A stretch of DNA of 32,000 nt from an uncultured Alphaproteobacteria bacterium (GTDB lineage Bacteria > Pseudomonadota > Alphaproteobacteria > Rs-D84). Shown piece by piece: positions 2,620 through 31,747 of this stretch. The stretch covers positions 900,001-932,000 of the forward strand of contig OZ007020.1 of the NCBI GenBank assembly GCA_963931495.1. The letters are read 5' to 3'. Positions within the stretch are counted from its first letter, which is position 1; the number at the start of each line of letters is the position of its first letter. Under the pieces are notes generated by a model. It saw only the letters and a list, made by a program, of their open reading frames with translations. It did not search any database and had not been told where the DNA came from. The position numbers were made by a program, and so were the translations under genes.

Positions 2620-3426
2620 TCAAGATTTTTTTGATACATTAAAAAATGGCTTTGACTTTTTTAATACCGCCAATGTTGCCCGGGCTTCTTGTTTAATTCG
2701 GTCGTATGCATCACGCCCCAAGATTATCCGACGGGGCGGATTCTGTTGTTGCGCCACATTAATCAGGTAAGATACCGCCAACGCAATGTCATTTTTATAG
2801 TGTCGTTTTATTTTATATGGAATTGGGGTCAGGTTTTCATATTCTGGGAATGTGTTTTCACGCATCATATCTTTTGATGCCATTCCGGTTGGGAACACCC
2901 CAAATTCCACAGCAATAACTTTACAGAATTTTTGTGTTTCGCACCACAGTGCCCCGGTTAATCCTTCTATGGCATATTTTGCCGAACAATACGCCGTGCC
3001 ATAAATTCGTGGGCACATTCCCAATTGCGAAGAAATATTTACGATTAATCCGTGTCCCTGGACACGAAACAGGGGCAATACTTCACGTATTGTATTTACA
3101 TATCCCCAAAAAGAAACATCCATTAATTTTCTGAATTCGTCATCTGTGGTGGATTCAAAAGTCTGCCATTGCCCCAGTCCACAGCAATTTACCAATGCAT
3201 CTATGTGCCCAAACTTATCAATTGCCGTTTTAATTGCGGCACGTATTGTCTGGGGCTGGGTCGCATCAACAGACAAACACAGCGCCCGATTATCTGTAAA
3301 ATCAGGGACGCGGCGCGCCACGGCAATGACATTCTTGTTTTTCGCCAATAATTGACGACAAATTTCATGACCAAAACCACTGGACGCACCAACAACCAAC
3401 CATGTTTTCAGTTTTTCATTATCCAT
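2620..3426 (-). CDS. Short-chain dehydrogenase/reductase (SDR)
   Basis: N-terminal VVGASSGFG Rossmann motif, catalytic YCSAKYA (YxxxK), length 268 aa. Its start overlaps the upstream gene by 8 nt. Confidence 0.85.
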   Translation of the reverse strand: MDNEKLKTWLVVGASSGFGHEICRQLLAKNKNVIAVARRVPDFTDNRALCLSVDATQPQTIRAAIKTAIDKFGHIDALVNCCGLGQWQTFESTTDDEFRKLMDVSFWGYVNTIREVLPLFRVQGHGLIVNISSQLGMCPRIYGTAYCSAKYAIEGLTGALWCETQKFCKVIAVEFGVFPTGMASKDMMRENTFPEYENLTPIPYKIKRHYKNDIALAVSYLINVAQQQNPPRRIILGRDAYDRIKQEARATLAVLKKSKPFFNVSKKS

Positions 3427-4813
3427 TATTTTTTGCCTTTATACTGTCTGATTTTAATGCGTGCATATATCGTGAAAAATCCATCTGGTAAGTATACGAA
3501 TTTGGCGCATCCAGCAAAACATTTTGTTCCCTGATTTTAATTGGATACATATTGGCCCGGCGTTTCAGTGAACGGGCCCATTTTGCCGTTGGAACGATAT
3601 GTGCGGCAATTTTATACATTGCGACAACCAAGGGTTCAAATGCAAATGCGTATACAGATTTACGATATCGTTTGTAAACATGTTTCTTTAATTTTTTGTA
3701 CCAGTATGATTTGCGTTCTGATTCAATCGTGTTGTCCAAAATATCGTGATAATACCAATACAGTTCCCGCGAAACGCTGTTAAATACTTTCTGTGTATCT
3801 TTCCAAATTGCTTTTTCAGATGGGACATGATTTATAAATGTTAATTCATGAACCCCATTGGCCCAGAAATTTAACACGGTTCGGGAACATTTGATACAAT
3901 GACCACAATTTACAGTATTTTTATAATCCGTGAAAAAGCATGTTATTAAATTTTTCATCACTATGGGTTCTGTGGCAATCAGTTTGCATTTTTGTGTTCT
4001 GGTGACATCAAAACCATCTTCTATGCAATTAAATGAACGTGATGCCAGGTAATCTGTAATCAATGGCGTTGATTCATCCGTTGTATATCTGGTGTCTTTT
4101 AGTAACAATCCACTACTGCCCAACAGTCCGTACGCATAATCACGGGTATTGGCAAACAAAAACAGCCCAGCACAAATATTAAATTTATATTGTGGAAATC
4201 CCTGGGTTTCACCAGGCATACTGATATGTACCGCCTCTATCCCGAAATGTTCCAATGTTTCTTTACAAATATTGAACTTATTTTGATATTTTTCATCATC
4301 ATTTGACAATATTTCCAGATTTTGAAAAATAATTGCTGTTTTAATATTTGTATTCCGTGGACCACGCAATCCGCGCACATGACTTAACAGCAGGTACGAC
4401 GCATCCACGCCACCTGAAAACGCAATAACAGAATCTTTGGACAATGGTTTATGTTCAACCGGAACTTCATGGGCGGGAACAATATTAATTTTATGATACA
4501 ACTTATCATCTGCATTAAATAATTGGTTATAATACTGATTGGCGGTGTACAGTCCCGCCAACAGCCCTTCGGATACTTTGCCATCAAAAAATGCCGTATC
4601 ACCATTATCTAACAATATTGACAACACGGGATATACGCGTAACAGCATTGCGTCATCATTTGGATTGTATTCACGGTCATTTGGGGCGTCCAGATATTTT
4701 ACAATTTCTGCACCATCAGGAAAAACAACACGCGCCGAAAAACGAATTATGTTTTTATCAGACAAGACTTCGCGGTTTACATAAACGTGTGCCGCATATT
4801 TATCATTTTGCAT
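3419..4813 (-). CDS. PP-loop ATP pyrophosphatase, QueC-like core with an unknown N-terminal domain of about 130 aa
   Basis: AFSGGVDAS PP-loop motif, and a C-terminal Cys cluster C-x11-CGHCIKC resembling the QueC zinc site. TAATG overlap with the upstream gene. Confidence 0.55.
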   Translation of the reverse strand: MQNDKYAAHVYVNREVLSDKNIIRFSARVVFPDGAEIVKYLDAPNDREYNPNDDAMLLRVYPVLSILLDNGDTAFFDGKVSEGLLAGLYTANQYYNQLFNADDKLYHKINIVPAHEVPVEHKPLSKDSVIAFSGGVDASYLLLSHVRGLRGPRNTNIKTAIIFQNLEILSNDDEKYQNKFNICKETLEHFGIEAVHISMPGETQGFPQYKFNICAGLFLFANTRDYAYGLLGSSGLLLKDTRYTTDESTPLITDYLASRSFNCIEDGFDVTRTQKCKLIATEPIVMKNLITCFFTDYKNTVNCGHCIKCSRTVLNFWANGVHELTFINHVPSEKAIWKDTQKVFNSVSRELYWYYHDILDNTIESERKSYWYKKLKKHVYKRYRKSVYAFAFEPLVVAMYKIAAHIVPTAKWARSLKRRANMYPIKIREQNVLLDAPNSYTYQMDFSRYMHALKSDSIKAKNNG

Positions 4814-6513
4814 TATTGTCCCCTTTTGAATAATTTCTTTACCATGTTCAATTTTGTTTTCTTTTTTTCGGTACCTGGTACAGTCGTTTTATTAAACGTC
4901 CGCATCATTTCCAGACCACGTTTTTCATCCGCATCTGTGGTAAATACTTCAAATAACACAGGTGCATCAAATTCACCGGTACAGAATGTCCGGATTTTAT
5001 CCAGAAATTCTGATTTATCTGACGCCGACATATAAACAAATCCGCATGATTTGGCCCATCCACATGCCCCGCCACGATTATGGCCAGATGCCGCAATGAT
5101 ATTATCAATCATTTCGCGTTTATCACGAAATTCTGGGTATAATCGGAATTCTTGGCCACCATTATTATTGATAACCAATATACGCAGATTTTTACCAATA
5201 TGGCGATTGCCCAATATATTCATGTCATAGAAAAATGCCAAATCCCCCAATTGGACAAAATATAATCTGTCTGGATTCATCAGCGAATGTCCAACCATTG
5301 TTGAAACACTGCCATCAATACCACAAACACCAACATTCAAAAATGTATCAATGCTGTTGTCCAGATTGAAAAAGTTCATATTTCTGCGACAATTAGATGT
5401 CAGGTGTATCGCCGAACCATGTGGCATGAATTCGGCCATTTTCTGGGAAATCAATGCATTAGACAGTGGCAAATCTGGATATTTTATGCCGTCCAGTAAT
5501 GTTTTTAATTGGCCATAATATGGCAATGTCTTTATATTTGCGGCCATCATGTGTTCAAAGAAAAATATCTCGGACATATCAAACAACTTGAATACAGGTG
5601 CATGAAAGCGACCACAATAATTACCATCCGGCGAAATACGCCAAATCTTTGTTCCCCAAAACAGTCGGCCCGATGAATACTCCGCCGAAACATTGCCAAT
5701 GTCAATCATAATGTCTGGACACTGGGGTAAATCCAGCATATCGGCAATTTGCGCCGTCAGTATTTTATTCTTGCCGTTGTACCGTGATGAATGGTCGCAA
5801 AATACAGGCGCATTAAACCGCTGGGCAAATCCAGAAATCGCATCCAGTTCACGTTCAGAAAATTTTTTGTGACTGCCGATAAAAATGCCGATGTTCTTGT
5901 CCGCCATTTGTTTGGCAATATCATTAACATTTAACGTATCACCGGTTATAACATCAACCGCATGCACATCATCAGGCAAGCGTTGTGTTGATATATTCAG
6001 TGCATCTGCCCAAACATTTGGCAAATTTATATGCACCGGTCCCCGACGCACAGATGTTAATGCCGCATGCATCAGTGACAGTGCCTTGAATTTATCTGAA
6101 TCATCTTTGATTACAGGTATATCAACACTGATAACCTTGACATCATTTTGCGTAACCGTTCTGTCAACGAATTGTGGTTCTTGGTTATATTTGTTTGAAA
6201 CATGTGTCCCAGTAATGGCGATTATTGGTAATTTTCGGTAAAACGCTTCGGTCATTGCGGGCAGATAATTCCGACTGCTGGTGGAACCAGTACATGTAAT
6301 CACCACCGGTTCACCGGTTTCTTCGGCGATACCAGTGGCCAGATATGCGGCACTGCGTTCATCTATGACAGAATAACACCGAAAAAAAGAATCTGAAAGT
6401 ACGCCGGCATTAAATGCGATATTTTGCCCACCGGGACTTGCAACAACGTACCGTATTCCATATGCTTTCAGCATGGCAATCATATATTGTGAATTCTTGT
6501 CATTTGAATACAT
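4813..6513 (-). CDS. Thiamine-diphosphate-dependent enzyme, MenD (SEPHCHC synthase)-like
   Basis: The motif VASPGGQNIAF...IDERSAAYLATGIAEETGEPVVITCTGSTSSRNYLPAMTEA matches the MenD N-terminal signature (DERSAA). Start placed at ATG 6513, preceded by GGAGA. The longer ORF to 6660 has no RBS and an implausible N-terminus. Confidence 0.7.
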   Translation of the reverse strand: MYSNDKNSQYMIAMLKAYGIRYVVASPGGQNIAFNAGVLSDSFFRCYSVIDERSAAYLATGIAEETGEPVVITCTGSTSSRNYLPAMTEAFYRKLPIIAITGTHVSNKYNQEPQFVDRTVTQNDVKVISVDIPVIKDDSDKFKALSLMHAALTSVRRGPVHINLPNVWADALNISTQRLPDDVHAVDVITGDTLNVNDIAKQMADKNIGIFIGSHKKFSERELDAISGFAQRFNAPVFCDHSSRYNGKNKILTAQIADMLDLPQCPDIMIDIGNVSAEYSSGRLFWGTKIWRISPDGNYCGRFHAPVFKLFDMSEIFFFEHMMAANIKTLPYYGQLKTLLDGIKYPDLPLSNALISQKMAEFMPHGSAIHLTSNCRRNMNFFNLDNSIDTFLNVGVCGIDGSVSTMVGHSLMNPDRLYFVQLGDLAFFYDMNILGNRHIGKNLRILVINNNGGQEFRLYPEFRDKREMIDNIIAASGHNRGGACGWAKSCGFVYMSASDKSEFLDKIRTFCTGEFDAPVLFEVFTTDADEKRGLEMMRTFNKTTVPGTEKKKTKLNMVKKLFKRGQ

Positions 6514-11027: not shown

Positions 11028-13913
11028 TTAATCCACCGCGTGATACGTTTTGCCGTCATATTGGATGTTCAGTGTTCCCGCACCACTTTCCAATATGCCA
11101 TAGCATACACCACCACCAGTACCAATGTTCAACGATGGCGTGGATAATGCCGAACTGTACAACGGTATCGTCACACCATTGCCCGTACGCAGACTGGTCA
11201 CACCCAGTGTACATAACTGGCTGCACGTGTTCGTCCCCGTCAGATTATACCCATCGTCACAAACCGTCGTATATGTGCAACTGGCGGGATAATTGACACT
11301 ATCACTGACTGGGGTATTCACACCACCAACAATACTTTGACTGATGCAATTTTTTGCACACCCTGCTTCACTGGTTGCCGCCGGGCCATCACGATACCCG
11401 TCTGGGCACTGGGTCGGTGCGGTCGCCCCGGCCCCAGACCAATTGCCCGTCCCAACAGAAACACATAAATTGCTTTTCAAATCCGCCGCAGATGCCGCCC
11501 ATATCTGGTTATTTCCATTTGGGTTATAGTATGATGCAGCGCATACAGTGCCATTTACCACATTTGTGCACCAATCGTCACCACACCCATCTTTAACCCC
11601 ATAATCACCCTCGCAATATCCGCAGCTGTACGCATAACTGCCTGTTATTGCGGCTTCGGAAAAAGAAGCGCGACAACCATAAACCATATTATGCACATCA
11701 TCACTCGTCCAATACCAATAACTGGTTACCAACCCTGCATACTCTGTTGCGGTTGGACATTGCTTGCAACTGCTGGCGCCATCGGTATCTGAATATGTTG
11801 CGCCTGTGCACTTATTACAACTAGACGTGTTGCCATAGTACACGGTATGTGCCGGATTCCAATACCCCGCCGTACATGTTGATTGCGTTGAACTGTTTGC
11901 TGTCTTAATATAATTACCCGCAGATACATTAATATAACACGAACCAATGCCACCCGTTGTACCGTTCGCAGATGTATACCCCGTCGGGCATTTTTCACAA
12001 CTGTTACCGTTCTTGTAATATCCCGCCTGGCACGCCGATGCCACTACTGTTCCGCCACTGCACGAACCCCACGAACTGCACCCCGTGCATTGCGATGCAC
12101 TGGTTGCACCCGCCGGCCCACCGGTATGTTTACCAGTACATTTTTGCGTTGCACCACTGATTGTACCCGCCGTGGCGTGCGCGTTACTTAATTCCGTGCT
12201 GGTCGCACTGCGCGAACACGATTGTGATAAATCCGTCGCACTGATACTGGTACAAGATGAACAGCCCGTTGCCGCAGTCGCGCCATTATATGTTCCAGGG
12301 CTGCATGCCGTACAACTGGTCGCATAAGTATAACTGCCATCTTGTCCTGGTGCCTGACTGCCAATATTACCAACCTGGGCCGTATATGTTCCTGGACTGC
12401 ATGGTGTACATGAATTAGTAAATCCCGATCCCATAGATACAGATTGATTTATATAATACCCCGCATTACATTCAGAAAAATGTTTGTTGTTTTCACAATT
12501 ATTATAAACCTGGGTTGAACTGTCATAGTAGCACTTGCCAGGTACCCGATAAAAACCCTTGTATTGAAATTCAAATGTCCAATAATCATCCACATCGCTA
12601 TCCAAATAACACTGGGTTGCTGCACTGGCCCCCGCTGGACTGCGTAACACGGCCGCACCATTATACGAATAGAATTTAGATGACGATGTCGGGGGGCATG
12701 AATAACGTGTGCTGTTATTGCAATAATATCCACTTTCGCACAATTTGCACGAATTACCGTTCTTGTAATATCCCGCCGAACATGATGTAATGGTTAATGT
12801 GCCGCCACTGCACGTACCCCAACTGCTGCAACCCGTGCATTGCGATGCACTGGTTGCACCCGCCGGCCCACCGGTATGTTTACCAGTACACTGTTGCTTC
12901 GCACCGCTGATTGTACCCGCCGTGGCGTGCGCATTGCTTAATTCCGTGCTGGTTGGATTGCGTGAACATGATTGTGACAAGTCCGTCGCACTGACACCCG
13001 TACAGGCCGGACAGCTGCTGCCGCTTTTGTAATATCCTGAGTTACAAGATATGCTGATTGAACATGTGGATGACGCCGCACTGCACGAACCACCGTAATA
13101 TTGGGTACCACTGGTAGATGAACTGCCATGGCGACAGGTCGCATTTGGCGGACATATCTGTCGCGTACAGGATTTGGTACATGATCTATAGCATGCGCCC
13201 GCACCGTTGGAATTACCATTCGCAGATGACGTATAACCCAAACTGCTGCATGTTGCACAGCTGTTGCCGTTCTTGTAATATCCCGCCTGGCACGCCGATG
13301 CCACTACTGTTCCGCCACTGCACGAACCCCACGAACTGCAACCCGTGCATTGCGATGCACTGGTTGCGCCAACCGGCCCACTGGTATGTTTACCAGTACA
13401 CTGTTGCTTCGCGCCACTGATTGTACCCGCCGTGGCGTGTGCGTTGCTTAATTCCGTGCTGGTTGGATTGCGGGAACATGATTGTGATAAATCCGTCGCA
13501 CTGATACTGCTGCATGTTGAACAACTGTTACCGGCATCATAACCATTTAAGTAATACCCTGGCGAACATGATGTAATGGTTAATGTACCACCACTGCACG
13601 TACCCCAACTGCTGCACCCGGTGCACGACCCAGAGCCAGCTGTTCCGCCCGCACCACCGGTATGTTTACCAGTACACTGTTGCTTCGCACCACTGATTGT
13701 ACCCGCGTATGCGTGCGCATTGCTTAATTCCGTGCTGGTCGCACTGCGTGAACATGATTGTGACAAGTCCGTCGCACTGATACTGCTGCATGTTGAACAA
13801 CTGTTACCGGCACCAGTACCATTTAAGAAATACCCGGATTTGCACGATGTATATTTCTTGGCCGACGCAGAGCATGTATACCCCGCCCCATAACCATCAG
13901 GCACAATGCACAA
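11028..13913 (-). CDS. Large (961 aa as called) Cys/Gly/Ser/Thr-rich modular surface-type protein with eukaryote-like CxxC / GYYxNG / CxxCPxGTY repeats; 5' end unresolved
   Basis: Single long ORF. A module of about 77 aa (CSTCSSISATDLSQSCSR..TSTELSNAHA.AGTISGAKQQCTGKHTGG....CTGCSSWG.CSGGT) occurs four times. CTPCSPGTY and CTACSPGTY resemble ephrin-receptor/TNFR-like Cys repeats. The called start is TTG inside a hydrophobic stretch. Confidence 0.75.
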   Translation of the reverse strand: MCIVPDGYGAGYTCSASAKKYTSCKSGYFLNGTGAGNSCSTCSSISATDLSQSCSRSATSTELSNAHAYAGTISGAKQQCTGKHTGGAGGTAGSGSCTGCSSWGTCSGGTLTITSCSPGYYLNGYDAGNSCSTCSSISATDLSQSCSRNPTSTELSNAHATAGTISGAKQQCTGKHTSGPVGATSASQCTGCSSWGSCSGGTVVASACQAGYYKNGNSCATCSSLGYTSSANGNSNGAGACYRSCTKSCTRQICPPNATCRHGSSSTSGTQYYGGSCSAASSTCSISISCNSGYYKSGSSCPACTGVSATDLSQSCSRNPTSTELSNAHATAGTISGAKQQCTGKHTGGPAGATSASQCTGCSSWGTCSGGTLTITSCSAGYYKNGNSCKLCESGYYCNNSTRYSCPPTSSSKFYSYNGAAVLRSPAGASAATQCYLDSDVDDYWTFEFQYKGFYRVPGKCYYDSSTQVYNNCENNKHFSECNAGYYINQSVSMGSGFTNSCTPCSPGTYTAQVGNIGSQAPGQDGSYTYATSCTACSPGTYNGATAATGCSSCTSISATDLSQSCSRSATSTELSNAHATAGTISGATQKCTGKHTGGPAGATSASQCTGCSSWGSCSGGTVVASACQAGYYKNGNSCEKCPTGYTSANGTTGGIGSCYINVSAGNYIKTANSSTQSTCTAGYWNPAHTVYYGNTSSCNKCTGATYSDTDGASSCKQCPTATEYAGLVTSYWYWTSDDVHNMVYGCRASFSEAAITGSYAYSCGYCEGDYGVKDGCGDDWCTNVVNGTVCAASYYNPNGNNQIWAASAADLKSNLCVSVGTGNWSGAGATAPTQCPDGYRDGPAATSEAGCAKNCISQSIVGGVNTPVSDSVNYPASCTYTTVCDDGYNLTGTNTCSQLCTLGVTSLRTGNGVTIPLYSSALSTPSLNIGTGGGVCYGILESGAGTLNIQYDGKTYHAVD
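12033..13799. repeat. Four near-identical intragenic modules of about 230 bp (13569-13799, 13293-13523, 12783-13013, 12033-12263)
   Basis: The SATDLSQSCSR-coding segment recurs at 13746-13778, 13470-13502, 12960-12992 and 12210-12242, with long flanking nucleotide identity. Confidence 0.85.
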
Positions 13914-14131
13914 CAGTAGTAATAAAGAGAAAAAAAAGTGAACGTTTAGTTACGACAATATCGGAGGGACACAATGTCGCAGATTTTCGGGATTTTTAGA
14001 AATATTGCTAAAATAACCGTTCCTTTAGATTCGGCACGGTTTTTTGCCCTGCGTCCCTTGCAGGGATATGGATTTTTTCACCTTTTTACAAGTGATTTTT
14101 TTGACGATTTGTATCTGTACAAAAAATAGTG

Positions 14132-15487
14132 TTAAAACCGCTGTTGCAACGTCAATTCCACCGACCAACGATCATATTCACGTTGCCATATATTAGAATC
14201 ACGACGAGTATAACTGAGCACCAATGCCGGAACAAAACCCAGAAAATCAAATTTATTATTTGAAACAGATACCGAATAACGCTGGGTAAAATCACGTTCT
14301 GTCATGTATGTCGGCTGTTCGTTTTGAATCGTAAACTGTTCATCACCATAAAATTGCCAATAAAACATTGGTTCAGCATAAATATTAAATCCATATGGCA
14401 ATTCCGTACCAATGCCAATACTGATACTGGGTTGAAAATACGAGTATTCTGGACGAACGGTATCTTCATATGCCACCGCGCCACGCAGTACAGTATATAT
14501 GTTTGATGTTATTGAATAAAACATATGCACAGATGCAGAATATGTGTTGCCATCCAGATATGCGGCATAATAATCATACTGGTTACTGGTGTACAATAAC
14601 GATAACCCGCCTGATAATTTGCGTGTAAAATCATAGTTTGTGTTTAATCGCACACCCGCCGACCAATTATATGCATCCCATCCATACCAACGGCGGGACG
14701 CCACACCCGCCAACCATATATCGCCATCGGACCATATATAACGTGGACCTGTGCTGGCATACAAATACAGATCATCATAGTTATGCTTGTTATAAATATT
14801 AAAATACATGCCGGCATCTGATTTCCAACGCCAACTGTTGGTTAAACGAAATTCGTAATTTCCACCCAGTTGAAAATTATACCCAAACGCAGATTCCGGC
14901 ACCGGTAAATCACGGCACCACCGCCCAAACATTTCAACACATTCTGTTCCGCCCGCCGCATTATTTACGTTGTTGTCAGGCGCCGCACCAAAATTAAACC
15001 AAACATTCCAATTTTTATTCTGGCGAATGACAAATCGGTAAAAGTTCATCATCTGGCGAACATTTTCTGGCAAATCGTCACCCGCCATTGCCAAACGTAA
15101 TTGATAGTCTGCCCGATACCACTGTTCTGTCTTCATATAACATACCGCCAATTCAAAGCGGACCCGCGCCAAGTCTGGATGCGCGTCCAGAATTGTACGA
15201 TATATACTTATTGCAGAATCAAAATCACCACGAAATGCCGCAATTCGCCCCAGTAAAAACCAACGTTCCAGTTCCAGTGGCCCACCACCCAAATTCGGTA
15301 TTTTTGTTAATATTTGTTCCGCCGTATCCAGATTGCCAGAATCAACCATATCGCCAGCCATCTTTACCGCGTCCAGCGCAGACATCGTAATTTCCGTGGT
15401 ACCATCAGATTTTTTTACTGATGAAATTTCTGCCCGAACTATGCCGGGCAGAATCGCAATAATCAAAATCAATATTATCTGTTTCAA
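14132..15487 (-). CDS. Surface lipoprotein assembly modifier (Slam; TPR N-domain + DUF560 beta-barrel)
   Basis: Signal peptide MKQIILILIIAILPGIVRA, TPR-like helices (FRGDFDSAISIYRTILDAHPD), and a long aromatic-rich beta-barrel region ending LTLQQRF. TTG start 2 nt after the upstream stop. Confidence 0.65.
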   Translation of the reverse strand: MKQIILILIIAILPGIVRAEISSVKKSDGTTEITMSALDAVKMAGDMVDSGNLDTAEQILTKIPNLGGGPLELERWFLLGRIAAFRGDFDSAISIYRTILDAHPDLARVRFELAVCYMKTEQWYRADYQLRLAMAGDDLPENVRQMMNFYRFVIRQNKNWNVWFNFGAAPDNNVNNAAGGTECVEMFGRWCRDLPVPESAFGYNFQLGGNYEFRLTNSWRWKSDAGMYFNIYNKHNYDDLYLYASTGPRYIWSDGDIWLAGVASRRWYGWDAYNWSAGVRLNTNYDFTRKLSGGLSLLYTSNQYDYYAAYLDGNTYSASVHMFYSITSNIYTVLRGAVAYEDTVRPEYSYFQPSISIGIGTELPYGFNIYAEPMFYWQFYGDEQFTIQNEQPTYMTERDFTQRYSVSVSNNKFDFLGFVPALVLSYTRRDSNIWQREYDRWSVELTLQQRF

Positions 15488-15489
15488 TG

Positions 15490-16767
15490 TTAATGAACAC
15501 CAAACACCATATCCATTTTAACGCCATCCGCACCTTCGTCAAATGTAACGGTACCAATCGCCTCGGTCGGGGTGCCGGCGTTACCATATGGTCCATAATA
15601 TTGAACGTTCATTTTACCATCCGAAATTACCAAATTTCCCGTTTCATCTGGTTGCGTGGTTAACCGCATATCATATGCCCCATTTGGTTTATACTGGGTA
15701 AATTTCATATTTGTACCGTCCGCATTTTGTGTTACATTAACATCATACCAATTATTAAATTCGGCAAACAGGTTTGTTTCTTTGGCATCTGTATCAAATG
15801 TCAATGTTGCCAAACCATCCAATGTTAACCGACCGCCGCCATCCTTGCCAGATTTAACCAATCCAATCGCACGACCAGAAAAATTAACGTCAGTGGTCAC
15901 AGTGGCAATATTCTTGGATTCATATCCGCCAGTGAAAATCACATATGCGTTATCAGGGTCATCAACATAGACAATGTCGGGTAATGTCTGGTGCACAATG
16001 TTATAAAAACCAAAGTCAGAATACTGTAACCCCATGTCTTTACCGATGGAATTATATGTTAACTTTGACATGCGCCCGGCATCGGTATCGCTGTGCCAAA
16101 ACTGATACGAACCAGTTACGTACCCATCAGAATTATGTAATGTTTCGTACGTTGTGCCGTCATCAGAACCATCAGATATTGTAACCGATATAATATCGCC
16201 CAACGCATCAACACCAAATGTTAACTGTTTACCGTTTATATCGGTCATTTTGGCATCGGTTATATCCAACACATCCGCATTTTCTAATATTTCAGCAACA
16301 TTAACCGCGTATTGTAATCCGTCACGCCAATTTGTAAAACATGCCACAGTGGACGATGCGCTGGCCCCATTAAAGCAATTACCAAGTTCCTGGTTTATAA
16401 CAAACATTGCCGCGTGCAATACATCTGCGTCTTGTTCAAAAAATTCAGAAATTTGCTTGTCAGTGGCATTTGTTAATTGAACCGCCATCTGGGCAATATC
16501 CATATAATCATTCGTGGATATATTATCCGAACTGAATTTCTTTAACCGCGCCGTGATATATTTTTTTACCTGGTCATCGTTCTTGGTAATCATACCGGTA
16601 ATTTCAGCGTTTTCATCGGACACAGTGTCTTTATATGGCGTATCCTGGATTTGCGGGTAATAATCAGGGCGTTCCTTGTACGGGTCGTACGACAAACTGC
16701 CCCCGATGTTGCCATCACTGCACGCCGCAATCAACAACACAGGTAATAAATATAAAATATTTCTCAT
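15490..16767 (-). CDS. Surface lipoprotein with a TbpB/fHbp-like C-terminal beta-barrel (likely Slam substrate)
   Basis: Lipobox LLIAAC. The C-terminal pattern FSGRAIGLV...LTLDGLATLTFD...MNVQYYGPYGNAGTPTEAIGTVTF...MVFGVH resembles the TbpB-type lipoprotein barrel. AAGGAA RBS. Confidence 0.6.
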   Translation of the reverse strand: MRNILYLLPVLLIAACSDGNIGGSLSYDPYKERPDYYPQIQDTPYKDTVSDENAEITGMITKNDDQVKKYITARLKKFSSDNISTNDYMDIAQMAVQLTNATDKQISEFFEQDADVLHAAMFVINQELGNCFNGASASSTVACFTNWRDGLQYAVNVAEILENADVLDITDAKMTDINGKQLTFGVDALGDIISVTISDGSDDGTTYETLHNSDGYVTGSYQFWHSDTDAGRMSKLTYNSIGKDMGLQYSDFGFYNIVHQTLPDIVYVDDPDNAYVIFTGGYESKNIATVTTDVNFSGRAIGLVKSGKDGGGRLTLDGLATLTFDTDAKETNLFAEFNNWYDVNVTQNADGTNMKFTQYKPNGAYDMRLTTQPDETGNLVISDGKMNVQYYGPYGNAGTPTEAIGTVTFDEGADGVKMDMVFGVH

Positions 16768-18406: not shown

Positions 18407-19603
18407 CTATGCCTGGGCACGACTGATTGGGCGCACATCTTTTACGGATGTCGCACCCGGTGTTGATGATATAGCACACTTGTCACGAACAAACATTAAT
18501 GCCCACAATCCAACCATGATTAACAATATGCCTAAAACTATTAAACTGTAACGCCAACTGCCCAATGTACTGCCCAGTCCAATGATAAAACATGTTCCAA
18601 TATACACCAAATTATCGCCAATGCTGTACAGTGATAAAATTACCGAACGATAGCGCGGCGGCAAGAAATCTTGGAACCGGGAATACAGCAATACATTTAT
18701 CGCACTGAATAATATATATGATATCCCCAACGACCACAAACCACGAACGGAATAATCTGTGGCGAACACAATAAACATCGCACCCGCCACGCATATCGCA
18801 GCATACAAAATCCAATCACGCACACGTGAAAAACGATATGCAAATGTTTGCCCCAACACCGCACACCCCAGAACAAAAAATTGTATCAATCCGACAAATT
18901 CCACCGGCAAACCAATTTCAACACCAATCGGGCTTAGATAATCATCCAGGTATGCAATATTTGCCACAAATAAACTGATCAGCAACATCAATAATATACA
19001 CGGTGTGCGCGCACAAATTTTAGCACCTGTTTTGAACAATTTTATAAAATTTGTTTTTTTAACTGTTTTGGCCTTGTTAATACTGGCGCATACTTTTATT
19101 CGCATAATGCATATTGCCGCCACGGCCAATGCCACCAGTGACGCAAATGTTATCCATCCGTATCCGGCAAACATTAATAGTGACCCAAACGCAGACAGTG
19201 CGGTCCCAACCGCCTGGACATTATATCGCACCCCCAGAACACGCGCATACATACGCTGGTGCCGGCGCGCACGTAATTCATCATACAACAGACCTTCAAA
19301 CGCGACATTGTAAAACGCAATTTCCACGCCCCACAGCAACATACCAATTGAAAATCCAATAAATGTCGGCCAGACGTAAAACAATGTAAATGCAATCGCC
19401 TTTAAGCACATGCCGAAAATTATCGCACGCTTGGACCCCAGTTTGTTTGTAACCCACGTCACCGGAATCTGCATTAAAAACGTTCCGGCGGCACAAAGTA
19501 TAAACATTAATGACAGTTGTATATCTGTCAAACCGTGCGACTGCATAAACACGGCGTATACAGGCGTTAATAATATTAACTTGTTAAAAAAAACAATACC
19601 CAT
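18407..19603 (-). CDS. MFS transporter; the true start is probably ATG 19646, disrupted by a 1-nt frameshift in a T8 tract
   Basis: Multi-TM profile typical of MFS. ATG 19603 has no SD. The upstream ATG 19646 (AAGGA upstream) encodes MNKDSSLRRFLRNIYGYCFF and stops at the end of the T8 tract (plus-strand A8 at 19586-19593). Confidence 0.75.
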   Translation of the reverse strand: MGIVFFNKLILLTPVYAVFMQSHGLTDIQLSLMFILCAAGTFLMQIPVTWVTNKLGSKRAIIFGMCLKAIAFTLFYVWPTFIGFSIGMLLWGVEIAFYNVAFEGLLYDELRARRHQRMYARVLGVRYNVQAVGTALSAFGSLLMFAGYGWITFASLVALAVAAICIMRIKVCASINKAKTVKKTNFIKLFKTGAKICARTPCILLMLLISLFVANIAYLDDYLSPIGVEIGLPVEFVGLIQFFVLGCAVLGQTFAYRFSRVRDWILYAAICVAGAMFIVFATDYSVRGLWSLGISYILFSAINVLLYSRFQDFLPPRYRSVILSLYSIGDNLVYIGTCFIIGLGSTLGSWRYSLIVLGILLIMVGLWALMFVRDKCAISSTPGATSVKDVRPISRAQA

Positions 19604-19691
19604 AGATATTGCGCAAAAAGCGCCGCAATGATGAATCTTTATTCATGATTAATTTCCCATCCTTGGATTCCAGAACATTATACCGAAAATA

Positions 19692-19720
19692 TTGAAATTT
19701 TGTCAAAAAAATATTATAAT
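19692..19720 (+). promoter_or_regulatory. Sigma70-type promoter TTGAAA-17 bp-TATAAT
   Basis: ttgaaa 19692-19697, tataat 19715-19720. This makes the TTG 19692 ORF start impossible. Confidence 0.55.
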
Positions 19721-19736
19721 TGCCATGTTGGGTGTC

Positions 19737-21974
19737 ATGGCAAAAAAAACAAATGAATTTTTATTAGAGTATTTCAAACGGATGATTTTCCGTGAAATGC
19801 CGATTGAACAATTCGTTCATTATTGCGGTTTTGTCAAATCTGATGATATGGCCGGCAATATGAAGGAATGGCGTGACACATTGCTGGAAAAAGATTCATC
19901 GGGTAATTTGGTTAAAAATGCCGCCGGGTTGTATGTACCAAAGGAATTGCCGGACCCAGAATCTGGGGAATGGGAACTGGATTCCGCAGAATGGGAAAAA
20001 TTCTTTAACGCGTTTCAAAATGCGTTCCAGGCGATGGATGCCGACCGTAACAAATTCAAATATGATGACAAGGCAACAAAGTTCCTGAATAAATATTTCG
20101 GAAACGACGGACAACTGTTTTCATACACTACGGCCAACATCGCCGCAGAAAATAAAATTGATGAACTGAAAACATTGCTGACAACATATGCAGATAAATT
20201 AAAGCCTATGTTGCGGAATTACTTTTCAGACGATTTTTCATGGGACGATTTAATTGACGGATTAAATTCAAAAAAATATAACAAAGATCCAAAATTCCGC
20301 CAACGTATGACTGATATCGCCGAAGCGTTGGCGTATGATACACTCATTCCAGCAAATTCGGTTGTGTATTCGTTAATAAATCGTCAACTGGATTTCGCGG
20401 CAATTTCTGATGGATTTGGTGGTGGGACAATTAATCCGGTCAAAATGACCCATTTCAAATTGGTGTATTCGGATTTACTGAAAGAACTGTATACCAATAC
20501 CAAGGCGTTTGATGCATTTTCTGCATCTGATCCAACAAAAATTTCACGCCTGTTGAACGAGGCCAAAGGCCGTCTGGATTATAACAGTCCGGACAGTCCC
20601 GGATACATTTCACCCCAACGCGATGATCGGCTGACATTGCCCCAACGTGTGTCGGAATGGTGGTCTGATACATATTCAAATTATCTGGAAAAGTATGTTA
20701 AGTTAAGTGGCGACCGCATGTTCTTTTCGCCATTTGCCAAGGCGATTTTCAAAGAAATTGATAAAAAAGGAATAAAGCCAACCGATGGTTTACAGAAAAT
20801 CCTGGACAGCGCGGGCGACATTTCTGATGCACTGAAAAAGAAATTCAAAAAAGCCCCGGGACAGTTTGATTGGTTCGTCAAAACAATGACAGAAATGAAA
20901 AACACCATGAAATCAGGCAAGGCATTTGCCAAGGCACTGCAAAATGGTCGTTCTTTGAATCTGTTGGTGCAAAATGTTATTATCAAGGCCGTTCGCGAAA
21001 ATAAAATTGATGAAGCAAAAACAACACTTGAATTGTTATCTGTGTTGCGATACACATACACGTCCAGCAAAATTATGGATGCATTAAATAAATCTGATTT
21101 AACGATATTTTCTGATACTGGGTTGTCTTGGAATAAAACCGAAGGCGTCAGATTTATTACCGCCGCCATGGACAAAGGCATCAAAAAAGCATTACAATTA
21201 TTCGGGTATACCATAACCATCGCAGGCAATGTGATAAATCGCGCTGGGACAAAATTCAATGGCCGGTTGAACAAGATGGCTGATGCATATAACGACCAGA
21301 TGACCGGCGAACAAAATAAGTTAAACAATCTGCGTGATACGGTGAGAAACGTATACACCCCGATGCGGGACCAGGCCCGCACAGATTTCCGTACACTGGT
21401 CGCGCATCATGGTAATCCCAACGCGGTTCAGCGGAATGTCACCGCATACAGTGGCGCACGCGACGCCGCACAACAAGTTTTGAATAACCGAATTGATGAT
21501 TTGGCGGCATACGTAAACACTAATCCATATGCCACGGGCAACGTTAATATCCTGATTGCGAACGATATCTGGCAAAAACTGCAAGACAGTTCATTGGCCA
21601 TTGACCCACATATTATCGGCATGATTACGGATCCGGCATTACAAAATATTGTAACAAATATACAAACAGCCCAGGCAAATTATCAAAACGCATCAAATAC
21701 ACTGAATGCCGAACAAATAAAATACCAAGAATTGATTGATGCACGTGACACACTGAAAACATACAACGATTTAATTCATACCGCGCGTGATGAAATCGCA
21801 TCATGGGATGAAAACCATAACGATAAGTTCAAAGAATTAATGGCATATTGGGATATTTGCAATTCAGGCGTCACACATTCGTGGATTGGCAGTAAAGATA
21901 AACAACAAAAGAAATTTGACCAGGACAAAAATGCCGTACTGGAAGAATACATACGCAATTATATCATAAGATAG
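19737..21974 (+). CDS. Large hypothetical soluble protein (about 745 aa), helical, K/D/N-rich, no recognised domain
   Basis: Long uninterrupted ORF. Start set to the first ATG downstream of the predicted transcription start (MAKKTNEF). An A8 tract lies in codons 3-5 (19742-19749). Confidence 0.7.
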   Translation: MAKKTNEFLLEYFKRMIFREMPIEQFVHYCGFVKSDDMAGNMKEWRDTLLEKDSSGNLVKNAAGLYVPKELPDPESGEWELDSAEWEKFFNAFQNAFQAMDADRNKFKYDDKATKFLNKYFGNDGQLFSYTTANIAAENKIDELKTLLTTYADKLKPMLRNYFSDDFSWDDLIDGLNSKKYNKDPKFRQRMTDIAEALAYDTLIPANSVVYSLINRQLDFAAISDGFGGGTINPVKMTHFKLVYSDLLKELYTNTKAFDAFSASDPTKISRLLNEAKGRLDYNSPDSPGYISPQRDDRLTLPQRVSEWWSDTYSNYLEKYVKLSGDRMFFSPFAKAIFKEIDKKGIKPTDGLQKILDSAGDISDALKKKFKKAPGQFDWFVKTMTEMKNTMKSGKAFAKALQNGRSLNLLVQNVIIKAVRENKIDEAKTTLELLSVLRYTYTSSKIMDALNKSDLTIFSDTGLSWNKTEGVRFITAAMDKGIKKALQLFGYTITIAGNVINRAGTKFNGRLNKMADAYNDQMTGEQNKLNNLRDTVRNVYTPMRDQARTDFRTLVAHHGNPNAVQRNVTAYSGARDAAQQVLNNRIDDLAAYVNTNPYATGNVNILIANDIWQKLQDSSLAIDPHIIGMITDPALQNIVTNIQTAQANYQNASNTLNAEQIKYQELIDARDTLKTYNDLIHTARDEIASWDENHNDKFKELMAYWDICNSGVTHSWIGSKDKQQKKFDQDKNAVLEEYIRNYIIR

Positions 21975-22427: not shown

Positions 22428-22838
22428 TTAATTTTGGTAATACGCGGCGGATGTGCATGTCCAACTGCCGGTGCTGTCACTGCCGGTTAATTGGTTGGCG
22501 GGAACATAACATGATGTTATTCCGCCACTGCCGTCTTCGCTGGTCCCGGGAGCGGGGCAAGAATAACACCCGTTGTTATAGTAGTTACCGGCACCACAAC
22601 CTGCTTCGCATTCATAATATACACAAGTGGAATTTCCGATTTGATGCGATATGCGTCTGTAACCTGAATTACATGTGTCGCACGATGTGTATTTTAACCC
22701 GTTGTCACACACATACGATGTTTTTGCGCATGATCCGGCAGGTCCGACACCGTTGTTAACAGGGGTATCAAATGACGTGCACATACACCCCACCGGCGTC
22801 ACCGAAATTGCATTGGCGCAAAATGGAAATAACATCAT
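22428..22838 (-). CDS. Small Cys-rich secreted-type protein, compositional relative of the 961-aa protein
   Basis: CDTCNSGYRR, CGAGNYYNNGCYSCPAPGTS and similar motifs. The N-terminus is uncertain (ATG 22838/22835 vs 22928). Confidence 0.5.
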   Translation of the reverse strand: MMLFPFCANAISVTPVGCMCTSFDTPVNNGVGPAGSCAKTSYVCDNGLKYTSCDTCNSGYRRISHQIGNSTCVYYECEAGCGAGNYYNNGCYSCPAPGTSEDGSGGITSCYVPANQLTGSDSTGSWTCTSAAYYQN

Positions 22839-23060
22839 TGCTGAAAACAAACCTCCGTTTGGATTCGGCAAAAAGTGGGGGACAAAAATGCAGAATTCTG
22901 GGATTTTTACAAAAATAAAAACCGCCATTATAAACGTGGTTTAGATTAGGCATGTGTACATTATACAACCATACACGCGTGTGTTATAGCCTGGATGCAA
23001 TTTAATATCAATAAAAAATAAGTATTTGATTTTTTTATATACAGAACATAACATTCCAGT

Positions 23061-28098: not shown

Positions 28099-28851
28099 AT
28101 GATATTTGATATGAAAACTGGTCTTATAATATTTATCGGTGCAGTTATTGTGTTCGCTGCACTGCTGATATTACGTATGGGACAGCGCAATCAAAAATGG
28201 GAATGGGAAGAACACACAAAGCATAATAGGCAGTTAATAGAAAGCGTAACCCAAATGAATCGTGGAACATGGTCGGAACGCGATTTAATTCTGGAATTAT
28301 TAAAAAATGGTTTTAATTCTGGCGCATTATTTCATGACTTGTATTTGAAAAAGTATAATGGCCGATATACCCAAATAGATTTAATATTGGCAACCAAAGT
28401 CGGACTAATCGTGTTTGAAGTAAAGGATTACGGCGGTTGGATTTTTGGCAAAGGGAACCAAAATCAATGGACACAAGTTTTAGCATACGGTCGCGATAAA
28501 TACCGATTTTATAATCCTGTACAGCAAAACGCTGGTCATATCAAGGAACTGCGCAAACAGTCTGAGCAATTTGGAAAACTGCCTATGTTTTCCGTAATCG
28601 TGTTTTACGGTGATTGCAATTTGCGAGATATAAGTTTTATTCCAAACGGAACATACGTTACAACCGCACACAGGGTACTGGATGTTGTTTATACAATTAT
28701 CAACAATAATCCACCTGCAAATTATGCAGACAAGCACGAAGTTATCCGAATTTTGGCGAATGCAGTGCAAAATGGCGCAGATGCAGAATCACGCAAACAT
28801 CACGCAGAATCTGTCAAAGATATGCTGGGCAAAGCACGTGTGTTTGATTAA
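28099..28851 (+). CDS. NERD (nuclease-related domain) protein with an N-terminal TM helix
   Basis: QIDLILATKVGLIVFEVKDYGGWIFG..QNQWTQ is the NERD core pattern. Confidence 0.7.
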   Translation: MIFDMKTGLIIFIGAVIVFAALLILRMGQRNQKWEWEEHTKHNRQLIESVTQMNRGTWSERDLILELLKNGFNSGALFHDLYLKKYNGRYTQIDLILATKVGLIVFEVKDYGGWIFGKGNQNQWTQVLAYGRDKYRFYNPVQQNAGHIKELRKQSEQFGKLPMFSVIVFYGDCNLRDISFIPNGTYVTTAHRVLDVVYTIINNNPPANYADKHEVIRILANAVQNGADAESRKHHAESVKDMLGKARVFD

Positions 28852-29086: not shown

Positions 29087-30745
29087 CTAACGTTCATTGG
29101 ATGTATCACGGCCGGGAACGTTTTGCTGGGCGATTTCTTGCGACCTGTTTTTTACAAGCATTCTTGCACGCCATAAATCATAAGATTTCTGAAGGTGTTC
29201 GGGCCATGTATTTTTATCTGACCTTTTTATTTCGCGCACGCCCGATAAATCTGTATTACTTAGCATAACTTCTTTCGTACGATTAAAATCTAATACTGGT
29301 GGTAAATTTTTACAAAAACTTAGGTTAATCTTTTTGGTTGGACCTTTTATTTCGCGCACGCCCGATAAATCTGTATTACTTAGCACAACTTCTTTTGTGC
29401 CGCAAAAATCCAATACCGGTAGTAAAATTTTAGATCCGCTTAAGTCAATCTTTTCAGTTGGCAATTTTATTTCGCGAACATCAGATAAATTTGTAAAACT
29501 TAAAGTAACCTCTTTTGTATGACTAAAATCCAATACTGGTGGTAAATTTTTACATCCGCCTAAGTCAATCTTTTCAGTTGGCCATTTTATTTCGCGCGCA
29601 CCCGATAAATCAGTATAACTTAAATCAACAGCCCTTGTACCGCTAAAATCCAATTTCGGGTGCAAATTCATGTTCTTTGCCCCGGTAAGATCTAAATTTC
29701 CCGTGACTTTTATATTCAAATTTATGTCAGACAAATCCATGCCAGACAAGTCCAAATCACCACGCACAACAAAACCGTTTGGCAAATCGTATATTGAATA
29801 ATATTTTCCATCCTGTTTTATCAATCCGATGTTTTTCATATCGTGTTTGATTTCCAGTTTTTGTGCCCCTATAAAATGTTGAACCGCTGGGATATACCTT
29901 TGTATCGGTGTCCTATTCCCCTTGCCTTTGCATTGAAATACATTTTGACCACGAACTTCAAGCGTCGCATGTGGTTCACCGTTGCTGTCCCTGATTGAAT
30001 ATATTTTTACACTGCCGTTTGTTACATCTTTATCATATCCGCCACGGCCAACACAATGCCCCATATATTCGCTTTCAAAATCCAATGCCTGGGGCGTTAT
30101 TAATTGATATGCACGCATACCGTTCGGCAAATCCATAATAAACTGCGTTCCGGCAAGCGACGCTTTATACATCTGTTCATTTTTTTCTTTCTTGGCGGCC
30201 AATTCAGCCATACGTTCGTGCCACTTTTCCGCCTGGACCAACGTTTTTTCAAACGTGCTGTATTCATTGCTGGTCTTCAGATAATCTAAACGCACCTTGG
30301 GTAACTTCTTTTTATCTTTTTGTATATTTTCTTTTATCGCGATGACGGTCTTGTCAACATAACTTTCCGCCGCAGAATATAAAAAATCCCTTATTGTTGT
30401 TAAATCATGACGCATTTGATCCGTCACCTTGGCGGCATCAAACAAATATACTTTCTGGCCCGCGTCCAACGCCCCGGTCGCCCAATCAGGTAAATCCGCA
30501 CGCTTTGATACAGGTGTTAAAAATGGACGCTCTTCACTTTCTGTTAAATAAGCCCTGATTCTGTGCTTAATATACTGCGTCAAGATAGAACGAACGATGG
30601 TATCTTTATTTTGCTCTATATAATTTGCGTCTTTCATGTTTTCTTGGGATTGACCGTCCAAAATAATCGGCATGCCGCGTTCACCCCAAACAAGATTAAT
30701 CAGGTAATTATTAAGTTCTTTGTCATTTAACAAATTAACAGACAT
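29087..30745 (-). CDS. PcfJ-like domain protein with C-terminal 40-aa tandem pentapeptide/LRR-like repeats
   Basis: EYMGHCVGRGGYDKDVTNGSVKIYSIRDSNGEPHATLEVRGQNVFQCKGKGNRTP matches the PcfJ-like pattern. The C-terminus has four repeats of LDFxxTKEVxLSxTDLSGVREIKxPTEKIDLxxxKNLPPV. Start set to ATG 30745 (AGGGG SD). Confidence 0.6.
   Translation of the reverse strand: MSVNLLNDKELNNYLINLVWGERGMPIILDGQSQENMKDANYIEQNKDTIVRSILTQYIKHRIRAYLTESEERPFLTPVSKRADLPDWATGALDAGQKVYLFDAAKVTDQMRHDLTTIRDFLYSAAESYVDKTVIAIKENIQKDKKKLPKVRLDYLKTSNEYSTFEKTLVQAEKWHERMAELAAKKEKNEQMYKASLAGTQFIMDLPNGMRAYQLITPQALDFESEYMGHCVGRGGYDKDVTNGSVKIYSIRDSNGEPHATLEVRGQNVFQCKGKGNRTPIQRYIPAVQHFIGAQKLEIKHDMKNIGLIKQDGKYYSIYDLPNGFVVRGDLDLSGMDLSDINLNIKVTGNLDLTGAKNMNLHPKLDFSGTRAVDLSYTDLSGAREIKWPTEKIDLGGCKNLPPVLDFSHTKEVTLSFTNLSDVREIKLPTEKIDLSGSKILLPVLDFCGTKEVVLSNTDLSGVREIKGPTKKINLSFCKNLPPVLDFNRTKEVMLSNTDLSGVREIKRSDKNTWPEHLQKSYDLWRARMLVKNRSQEIAQQNVPGRDTSNER
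29221..29700. repeat. Four tandem 120-bp repeats inside the PcfJ-like gene
   Basis: Units begin at 29221, 29341, 29461 and 29581. The first two are nearly identical at nucleotide level. Confidence 0.85.
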
Positions 30746-30765
30746 AAAATACCCCTGTTGCCCGC

Positions 30766-30794
30766 ATTGTATCACAAGCACTGAAAAATAACAA
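30766..30794 (-). promoter_or_regulatory. Promoter TTGTTA-17 bp-(TGa)TACAAT for the PcfJ-like gene
   Basis: On the minus strand, ttgtta is at 30794-30789 and tacaat at 30771-30766, with a TGn extended -10. Confidence 0.45.
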
Positions 30795-30845
30795 GCGGCG
30801 CAACCGATATACCGATGACCACTTTTGGCAGCATTTGGAATACTT

Positions 30846-30864
30846 TGTGTGTGTGGGGGGGGGG
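30846..30864. repeat. Simple-sequence tract (TG)5 followed by G10
   Basis: tgtgtgtgtg then G10 at 30855-30864 (C10 on the gene strand), about 60 nt upstream of the predicted -35. Confidence 0.9.
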
Positions 30865-31200
30865 ATAAATCTCTATTCTCAAACGCAATAAAAATCACAC
30901 CCATGTGCGCGATTATTTTCTGGCAGGGTGATAAGATTTGACGGTATTAGATATGATAAATACAGGTATTTGCAGTGAATTTTTATCTTTTTGTGGTCTC
31001 TATTTTCGCCCGCCACACCACAGTTCCGACACTTTTGCAAAAAATCCCACAAAAATAACAGGGAGTTTGATTTTCCCAAAACAGGGATTCTTCCTCACCA
31101 TATCAGGCAATAAATTTACCACATTCATCCCACTATACGTGCGCAATGATAACAATTGATAGTTGATTATGGGTATATTTCCCGGAATAATTATGACAAT

Positions 31201-31657: not shown

Positions 31658-31747
31658 TGGCGGATGGGGAGGGATTCGAACCCCCGGTGGAGTTGCCCCC
31701 ACAACGGTTTTCAAGACCGTCGCAATCGACCGCTCTGCCACCCATCC
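31658..31747 (-). tRNA. tRNA-Ser (anticodon UGA), long variable arm, CCA encoded
   Basis: The reverse complement GGATGGGTGGCAGAGCGGTCGATTGCGACGGTCTTGAAAACCGTTGTGGGGGCAACTCCACCGGGGGTTCGAATCCCTCCCCATCCGCCA folds into a cloverleaf with a long extra arm. Confidence 0.92.

Follow-up and report, generated by a model that had tools for sequence, protein, structure and literature searches.

We analysed a stretch of 32,000 nucleotides (hereafter the window) from an uncultured alphaproteobacterium of the Rs-D84 lineage (contig OZ007020.1 of assembly GCA_963931495.1, positions 900,001 to 932,000), which lies on a 0.97-Mb contig of about 40% GC. On its minus strand, at 11028..13913, is a gene for a Cys-rich modular protein, preceded by a short segment that is inverted relative to the gene and carries a ribosome-binding site (RBS), a start codon and the first part of an export signal. 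The gene and the features at its 5' end are as follows, with all positions counted from the first letter of the window.

14063..14091, minus strand: fixed sigma-70-type promoter, outside the cassette (TTGTAA at 14091-14086, a 17-nt spacer, TATCCC at 14068-14063)
14022..14036, minus strand: leader motif TGCCGAATCTAAAGG, adjoining the left repeat
14014..14021, minus strand: left inverted repeat core AACGGTTA, with an imperfect extension into the leader (AAAGGAACGGTTA)
13949..14013, plus strand: 65-bp invertible cassette, OFF here; its reverse complement corresponds to the ON segment of the paralogue locus L004
13941..13948, minus strand: right inverted repeat core TAAACGTT, with an extension that continues into CACTTTT
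13930..13937, minus strand: tract of eight Ts (T8), within the signal-peptide h-region (FFF) and the extended right repeat, in frame after a flip
13886, minus strand: predicted start of the mature protein, AGYTC, with cleavage of signal peptidase I (SPase-I) type just before AGYTC in homologues
11028..13913, minus strand: coding body of the Cys-rich modular gene (961 codons when counted from a TTG, which is not its true start)
13524..13799, minus strand: A module, copy 1 (aa 39-130)
13248..13523, minus strand: A module, copy 2 (aa 131-222)
12738..13013, minus strand: A module, copy 3 (aa 301-392)
12264..12755, minus strand: middle domain without repeats (containing YWTFEFQYKGFYR; about aa 387-550), conserved across species
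11988..12263, minus strand: A module, copy 4 (aa 551-642)
11031..11405, minus strand: conserved C-terminal region, whose last 65-110 aa form a beta-rich, family-defining domain
11028-11030, minus strand: stop codon of the gene

The open reading frame (ORF) of 961 aa described in the original prediction is real, and so is the composition ascribed to it, dominated by Cys, Gly, Ser, Thr and Tyr (S 16%, G 13%, T 12%, A 10%, C 8.3% and Y 6.6%); its translation also shows the motifs GYYKNG/GYYLNG and C(T/A)xCSPGTY. Gene callers give 958 aa for the window protein (P0001), against 961 from the TTG. As it stands, the ORF has no Shine-Dalgarno (SD) sequence, no ATG and no charged signal-peptide n-region. 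The frame 5' of the TTG reads, from a stop codon, LNVHFFFSLLLLLCIVPDGYGAGYTC, which is the back half of a signal peptide, and close homologues have the N-terminus MSQIFGIFRNRNIAKITVYFFFSLLLLLCIVPDGYGAGYTC.

On its plus strand, the cassette contains GGAGG at 13963-13967, an ATG at 13974 and 13 n-region codons (MSQIFGIFRNIAKI), the gene itself being on the minus strand. We compared this region with that of a 1431-aa paralogue (P0130, with an ON-type N-terminus), which lies between a CcrM-like methyltransferase (MTase) gene and clpP at locus L004. The two 5' regions have about 90 bp upstream in common, followed by 65-71 bp that are reverse-complemented in the window; the L004 counterpart of the cassette presents GGAGG, ATG and the first codons in the ON orientation, and the RBS-ATG core matches the plus strand of the window at 13963-13999. 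An in-silico flip of the window cassette gives MSQIFGIFRNIAKINVHFFFSLLLLLCIVPDGYGAGYTC and onwards, in frame through the T8 tract with no stops, and restores the signal peptide MSQIFGIFRNIAKINVHFFFSLLLLLCIVPDGYG in frame directly before AGYTC. Judged from its sequence, the gene is OFF as it stands in the window, with the RBS, the start codon and the first part of the export signal inverted, and by the same logic only the ON orientation would supply SD, ATG and n-region in frame. A 22-mer of the cassette had no match in scans of genome contigs and metagenome contigs. A frameshift at T8 was also considered as the cause of the missing start; after a shift of -1 the product would read M(TTG)CPSDIVVTKRSLFFSLLLLLC, and this reading was dropped because it comes without an SD sequence and because an inversion explains the data better.

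We investigated the distribution of this arrangement at 27 family loci in species-representative metagenome-assembled genomes (MAGs), all of them uncultured alphaproteobacterial gut MAGs (human, mouse, wild mouse and roe deer); the named homologues come from gut 'Alphaproteobacteria bacterium' MAGs and one Candidatus Enterousia. Sixteen loci have an ordinary signal peptide at the 5' end (class B; MSRFLR..ALA before AGYxC). The remainder have a long leader (class A), which is ON at six loci (L021, L024, L025, L032, L034 and L041) and OFF at five (L020, L023, L027, L028 and L033, to which L017, fetched separately, may be added), with RBS, ATG and 15-18 codons on the opposite strand at the OFF loci. 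At L038 a switch-type leader is read in frame, but the contig ends before its start can be placed.

We additionally identified two same-species pairs in which both orientations are represented. A 79-bp segment of L019 (ON) is the exact reverse complement of that in L049/L050 (OFF), and a 71-bp segment of L048 (ON) is the exact reverse complement of that in L028 (OFF), with identical flanks in both cases. A segment bounded by inverted repeats thus occurs in both orientations at one locus, and these pairs settle for the family that it possesses a switch and not just the trace of a one-off inversion. The 922-aa ON protein encoded on real contigs (P0292/P0296) has exactly the N-terminus predicted by the in-silico flip of L028. 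Flipping gave an intact in-frame leader in 7 of the 8 best-assembled OFF loci (the window, L005 and six others in other species or loci), and failed to do so in four collapsed low-coverage assemblies of the window's locus. The flip is 1 nt out of frame at L017, as it is at a small relative of the gene described below, which could be due to decay, homopolymer slippage or sequencing error.

It is highly improbable that the inversion, the module counts or the mosaic alleles described below are artefacts of repeat mis-assembly or annotation. Short-read contigs of the window's locus (hereafter the Slam locus, after the neighbouring gene) are indeed either collapsed (L007, L010-12) or broken at the gene (L013-15), and L047 (P0128) joins the MTase flank of the other locus to a DUF378/ThiF flank around a collapsed body. 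However, the 5' region, its orientation and the T8 tract are identical in assemblies of three contig-naming styles (suggestive of hifiasm-meta, Flye and Canu), a 65-bp inversion with unique flanks is atypical of repeat collapse, and the design recurs, exact ON/OFF pairs included, across more than 10 independent MAGs. The very short gene of L007 and L010-12 was considered as a deletion and is treated here as repeat collapse. L047 was considered as the Slam locus in its ON state and rejected, its flanks being from two loci; it is the product either of chimeric assembly or of true recombination between loci.

Two further observations concern the surroundings of the switch in other species. L019 and L049 encode proteins of the same 90%-identity cluster and have the same downstream genes (DnaJ, GyrB) and different upstream flanks, which points to large rearrangements that broke at the 5' regulatory module common to both. 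In two other species (L048, L049 and L050, at about 3200-5840), the family member is immediately preceded by a TcpQ-like gene and a secretin gene.

As in the window, most of the switch-type loci surveyed have their promoter outside the cassette. For its -10 box, the window has TATCCC, the paralogue shares TATACT with other strains, and other species show TATAAT; both TATCCC and TATACT are found among strains at the Slam locus, and a consensus promoter scan did not call the window variant. In the window strain, CC replaces an A in the -10 box, and this also makes a 6-bp leader hairpin, GTCCCT/AGGGAT (14053-14067 / 14063-14068). The leader motif is conserved as TGCC(G/T)AATC(C/T)AA(A/T)GG at most of the surveyed switch-type loci of other species, and is a candidate accessory or recombinase-binding sequence. 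An Rfam search of the leader gave no match. A terminator in the OFF leader, of the kind known from cwpV, was considered and rejected as a general mechanism: the window has a 6-bp hairpin followed by ATTTT, but the same junction occurs in the ON state of L019.

The leader also varies between strains of the Slam locus, two of which have a 26-bp leader deletion. When the tract is T7 and the cassette is OFF, an alternative TTG-initiated leader, MCPSDIVVTKRSLFFSLLLLLC, becomes fused to the gene, and one T7 contig is so annotated (P0127). Variation of the T tract (13930-13937 in the window; L010, L011, L012 and L017) may be a second, slippage-based layer of control, or sequencing noise.

We identified a single repeat family in the window, consisting of four direct repeats in register of 276 nt, or 92 aa, each. 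These A modules share 72-91% DNA identity in pairs over 276 nt, with longest identical runs of 26-74 nt, which are long enough for homologous recombination. The original prediction had correctly recognised four modules, but its description of them as nearly identical at the DNA level is an overstatement (77-91% over the 231-nt units that it had delimited). Its expectation that module number should vary was borne out, as counts differ between alleles: A modules range from 0 to 4, B from 0 to 2, D from 0 to 6 and E from 0 to 6. The window gene contains 4 A and 1 B and the L005 allele 3 A and 2 B, while the paralogue contains 1 A, 2 B, 3 D and 6 E, and a variant of it 6 D and 4 E.

The longest contig for both P0130 and P0001 is 968,759 bp, and the paralogue is very likely on the same 0.97-Mb contig as the window gene; a single genome therefore very likely holds one copy ON and one copy OFF. 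We identified signs of exchange between the two. P0121, the same gene on another long contig, has 9 residues that depart from P0001; they fall into two patches that match P0130 exactly, in what appears to be a clean gene-conversion signature. The ClpP-locus gene of another sample (L006) appears as a mosaic, with 98.3% identity to L004 over its first 1254 nt and 97.5% identity to the window gene over its last 1227 nt. Between the window gene and the L005 allele of another strain, the 161 codons of the middle domain contain 18 synonymous and 10 non-synonymous differences (ratio of non-synonymous to synonymous rates, dN/dS, 0.14), and on this measure the locus appears to be under purifying selection.

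Several points weigh against the window gene as a working switch with the consequences outlined below. The Slam locus is OFF in every assembly seen (at least 7 samples and at least 14 contigs), and the ON state was seen only at the paralogue of the MTase/ClpP locus, every copy of which is ON. The right and left repeat cores differ at one position, where the paralogue has the perfect TAACCGTT; the -10 box of the window is TATCCC; and three low-coverage assemblies of the Slam locus have T7 or T6 as their T tract, which would put the flipped leader out of frame. No recombinase domain was found in the window ORFs, and tblastn searches with Hin, XerD and FimB found no recombinase in 573 kb of related loci; such an enzyme may lie in another part of the genome. 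The mosaics L006 and L047 were assembled from short reads and could be chimeras, and model confidence is low for all four A modules and for the middle domain.

Some of these points would suit a silent archival copy, in which the Slam-locus gene was locked OFF by one old inversion and acts only as a reservoir of modules for, or from, the MTase/ClpP paralogue. Donor cassettes of this kind are known from Anaplasma msp2, Borrelia vlsE and Neisseria pilS. The consistent OFF state beside a consistently ON paralogue, the mismatched right repeat and weaker -10 box, the varying T tract, the leader deletion in two strains, the paralogue-like patches of P0121 and the L006 gene with its window-like 3' half all favour such a copy. 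We nonetheless regard it as unlikely. Both the ORF, with its 961 codons, and the inverted cassette are undamaged and in frame. The minority orientation is rare elsewhere too, occurring in about 8 of 130 and about 2 of 59 contigs of two protein clusters (among the members listed), so that some 14 OFF contigs are compatible with switching, and an OFF-only record at the window's locus is no proof of locking. The L019/L049 pair flips although its repeats are equally imperfect. Finally, the middle domain is conserved and is absent from the ON paralogue, so conversion from that copy is hard to invoke for its constraint, which argues for occasional translation of the window gene; a third paralogue with this domain, of which none was retrieved, may be an alternative source of the constraint.

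We thus consider it probable, with reasonable confidence, that the gene is a functional member of the invertible-switch family, with reversibility at the window's own locus as an inference. Control would act after the start of transcription, with a fixed promoter reading into a cassette of 65-85 bp that holds the SD, the ATG and a positively charged n-region. In the ON state, the cassette would continue in frame into the h-region and then the mature protein from AGYTC; in the OFF state, which is that of the window, the mRNA would be without ribosome-binding site, start codon and export signal. A site-specific recombinase, presumably encoded away from the locus, would flip the cassette between the short imperfect inverted repeats, and the T8 tract that follows the switch may add slippage-based control of the reading frame. 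Unequal recombination among the modules, with their 72-91% identity, and gene conversion with the ON paralogue at the MTase/ClpP locus would be two added sources of variation. The product would be a Sec-exported, disulfide-rich modular protein, most likely extracellular or surface-exposed, of a multigene family that appears confined to uncultured gut Alphaproteobacteria, probably Rs-D84/Enterousia-like with genomes of about 1 Mb.

The mature N-terminus common to the family is AGYTC-x3-KKYTSC-xSGYYLNG, and the signal peptides of homologues end in AHA, ALA, AYA or GYG before AGYxC, which is of SPase-I type with no lipobox. By analogy with these endings, the window protein would be cleaved before AGYTC, and its restored signal peptide points to Sec export; disulfide formation and surface exposure are expected of such a protein. 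An antigenically variable coat protein or adhesin, as originally proposed, fits the evidence, and a role in adhesion, or in evasion of immunity or phages, may be supposed.

For the window protein itself, no significant match was found in Pfam, nor in the PDB by sequence; it scores 18.7 bits against Ephrin_rec_like (PF07699, formerly GCC2_GCC3) at aa 692-723, below the gathering score of 23.1 bits, and has a weak match to TNFR_ELAPOR1. At the level of the family, the resemblance to ephrin-receptor and TNFR-type Cys repeats noted in the original prediction is upheld by Pfam, with Ephrin_rec_like matching 9 of 39 members (E<=0.01; best E 5.7e-50) and TNFR_ELAPOR1_6th 10 of 39. The likeness drawn there to Giardia variant-specific surface proteins (VSPs) does not extend to their type: VSPs have a C-terminal transmembrane helix and a conserved CRGKA tail, whereas the window protein ends in NIQYDGKTYHAVD with no hydrophobic helix.

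A full-length AlphaFold2 (AF2) model has a mean predicted local distance difference test score (pLDDT) of 57 and is confident at aa 20-40, 205-300, 620-720 (>90) and 850-960; the middle domain, which the ON paralogue lacks, is among the parts of low confidence. A Foldseek search of this model against the PDB gave nothing at E<=1e-3, all of the best matches having E>=0.013. The top of this non-significant list consists of Cys-rich ladder domains, namely a Chlamydomonas mastigoneme, ELAPOR1 (probability 1.0 over 65 columns, root-mean-square deviation 3.8, with a non-significant E value), OX40, 4-1BB, RANK and the Cys-rich domain (CRD) of EphA2.

The C-terminal domain follows the pattern ..GYNLT..C.Q.C..G.T.L..G....PLY....P....CYG......YH... 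and a profile built from 23 sequences identified it in 601 representative clusters, 390 of them at E<=1e-10. It is nearly always at the extreme C-terminus, in proteins of 75 to more than 4000 aa. Modelled alone, the domain has a pLDDT of 88; the model has no significant match in the PDB (best E 0.84; TbpB E 3.2), and weak matches in BFVD to uncharacterised proteins of uncultured gut phages (E 0.06, probability 1.0). We detected no eukaryotic counterpart of the A module, the middle domain or the C-terminal domain. Elsewhere in L004, a 345-aa ORF (19161-20198) begins as the N-terminal half of the phage major head protein phrog_9953 (E 6.7e-37) and continues into a Cys-rich C-terminus almost identical to that of a nearby 197-aa secreted protein (L004 1363-1956), and both proteins end in a motif resembling the family C-terminus (LTVPSLNVQIGNTIYYG).

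The gene lies downstream of two genes on the same strand.

14132-15487, minus strand: Slam (SlipAM, E 1.7e-34), with a TPR N-terminus
15490-16767, minus strand: lipoprotein of 425 aa, with the leader LLIAAC and no Pfam match, directly upstream

The original prediction was right that a Slam/lipoprotein pair directly precedes the gene on the same strand, but a link with the pair found no support. The adjacency could make the Cys-rich protein a cargo of type XI secretion, that is, a surface lipoprotein moved by the adjacent Slam with LLLLC as its lipobox, where a Cys indeed follows a Leu-rich stretch. We find this very unlikely. Neither Slam nor the lipoprotein is present within 6-8 kb of any of about 30 other family loci, the pair being seen only at the locus of this species, and a gap of 218 bp, with the gene's own promoter, separates it from Slam. 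The consensus of a lipobox is [LVI][ASTVI][GAS]C, to which a Leu at -1 is atypical, and the Cys of LLLLC is not conserved at the equivalent position of homologues, in which AHA, ALA or AYA precedes AGYxC. The C-terminal domain, with no significant structural match, is also not a barrel of the TbpB/HpuA type (TbpB E 3.2, as above), and the 425-aa lipoprotein is the more obvious cargo. Thus, the adjacency of Slam is probably coincidental, and its likely cargo is the 425-aa lipoprotein. The pair itself (14132-16767) sits in a gut alphaproteobacterium with an apparently reduced genome.

A second cassette was identified elsewhere in the window, beside the smaller relative that the original prediction had placed at 22428-22838.

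22875..22930, plus strand: second, similar inverted RBS and ATG cassette (MQNSGIFTKIKTAI..), OFF, before a small Cys-rich ORF at 22428-22928 (minus strand)

This relative is similar to the large protein, as had been claimed, but weakly so (BLASTP E 2e-4, 39% over 66 aa), and is without the C-terminal domain of the family. Flipping the 22875-22930 cassette leaves it 1 nt out of frame. The region upstream of the small ORF (22848-22968) repeats the layout of the switch, with a TATAAT -10 box, the leader motif TGCCTAATCTAAA, and GGGGGA and ATG in inverted orientation; the motif occurs again, as TGCCGAATCCAAACGG, across the cassette from the first copy.

Among the remaining genes, 19692-21974 encodes a charged, apparently helical protein of 760 aa, with no Pfam or PHROG match, which is conserved beside the locus in all strains. 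The ORFs at 1641-2615, 28099-28851 and 29087-30904 encode, respectively, a protein with a tail-protein-like N-terminus (phrog_1640), a NERD nuclease-related protein and a PcfJ-like protein; these look like remnants of mobile elements or prophages, near a tRNA-Ser gene at 31658-31747.

Parts of this design have parallels in known systems. The mpl (P35) lipoprotein genes of Mycoplasma penetrans, studied by Horino et al. in 2003 and 2009, reportedly have one invertible element per gene. As in mpl, we find a multigene family of variable, putative surface proteins in a host-associated bacterium with a reduced genome, and a small element for each gene (about 100 bp in mpl) with short inverted repeats and independent ON and OFF states; the mpl recombinase is encoded elsewhere in the genome. 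In contrast, the mpl element carries the promoter, whereas here the promoter is fixed and the element consists of SD, start codon and n-region; and the mpl proteins are lipoproteins, whereas those of this diderm alphaproteobacterium are unrelated Cys-rich proteins of SPase-I type. The short modules, which would form disulfide ladders, the CxxC and GxY motifs and the logic of a variable surface coat recall both the Cys-rich domains of the Ephrin_rec_like and TNFR type and the Giardia VSPs, albeit without the C-terminal transmembrane anchor with CRGKA of the latter.

Clostridioides difficile cwpV likewise has a fixed promoter and an invertible element before a large, repeat-containing surface gene, with control after initiation of transcription (PMC2784873). 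Its OFF state depends on a terminator in the leader, with the coding sequence outside the switch, whereas here the translation start and 13-18 codons are inside; its recombinase, RecV, is also known. The cassettes resemble the 'partial intergenic invertons' of PhaVa in straddling a gene's 5' end and some of the adjoining intergenic sequence (Chanin et al., PMC10028968), and differ from that catalogue, which was drawn from isolate long-read data, in being on/off cassettes of 65-85 bp conserved across an uncultured lineage. Ureaplasma MBA and Mycoplasma Vpma/Vsa also have inversions at or within the 5' region encoding the signal peptide of variable surface proteins, as well as chimeras of paralogues (PMC3047005, PMC2268961), but there one expression site moves among silent genes, while here each gene appears to keep its own promoter and cassette.

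Inversion switches and partial intergenic invertons are thus already known (PMC10028968), and we found no description of this start-cassette design in the literature. What sets it apart is the cassette of 65-85 bp with SD, ATG and n-region behind a fixed promoter, the poly-T tract within one arm, the undescribed Cys-rich family, and the conservation of the design across a lineage of uncultured diderm bacteria. The switch is unusually compact and would act on translation initiation and export, not on the promoter. Being conserved over many species, it offers a clean setting in which to study how invertons evolve and to hunt for the recombinase, and the C-terminal domain, represented by 601 clusters and with neither a Pfam match nor a neighbour in the PDB, is new and deserves characterisation. 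Gene callers give truncated or odd N-termini for these genes (MPDGYG.., MHKITVG.., MCVICVP..), with no sign that a gene is phase-OFF; thus, the surface-protein repertoires of an uncultured gut lineage are mis-annotated.

The Rs-D84/Enterousia lineage has genomes of less than 1 Mb and a fermentative metabolism, and is a probable obligate symbiont or parasite (PMC12306168). A variable family of Cys-rich secreted proteins under ON/OFF control is a prime candidate for the attachment and evasion machinery of such a lineage of about 1 Mb. It is possible, and we put this forward tentatively, that the family amounts to a genome-wide system of antigenic variation, in which many Cys-rich genes would each have a fixed promoter and their own inverton of start codon and signal peptide, with a homopolymer tract in one arm, shuffling of modules, conversion between paralogues, and a C-terminal domain for surface targeting or anchoring. 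If true, this system would be a diderm counterpart of the variable-lipoprotein systems of mycoplasmas, and would offer a handle on how unculturable, probably partner-dependent bacteria attach to host or partner cells.

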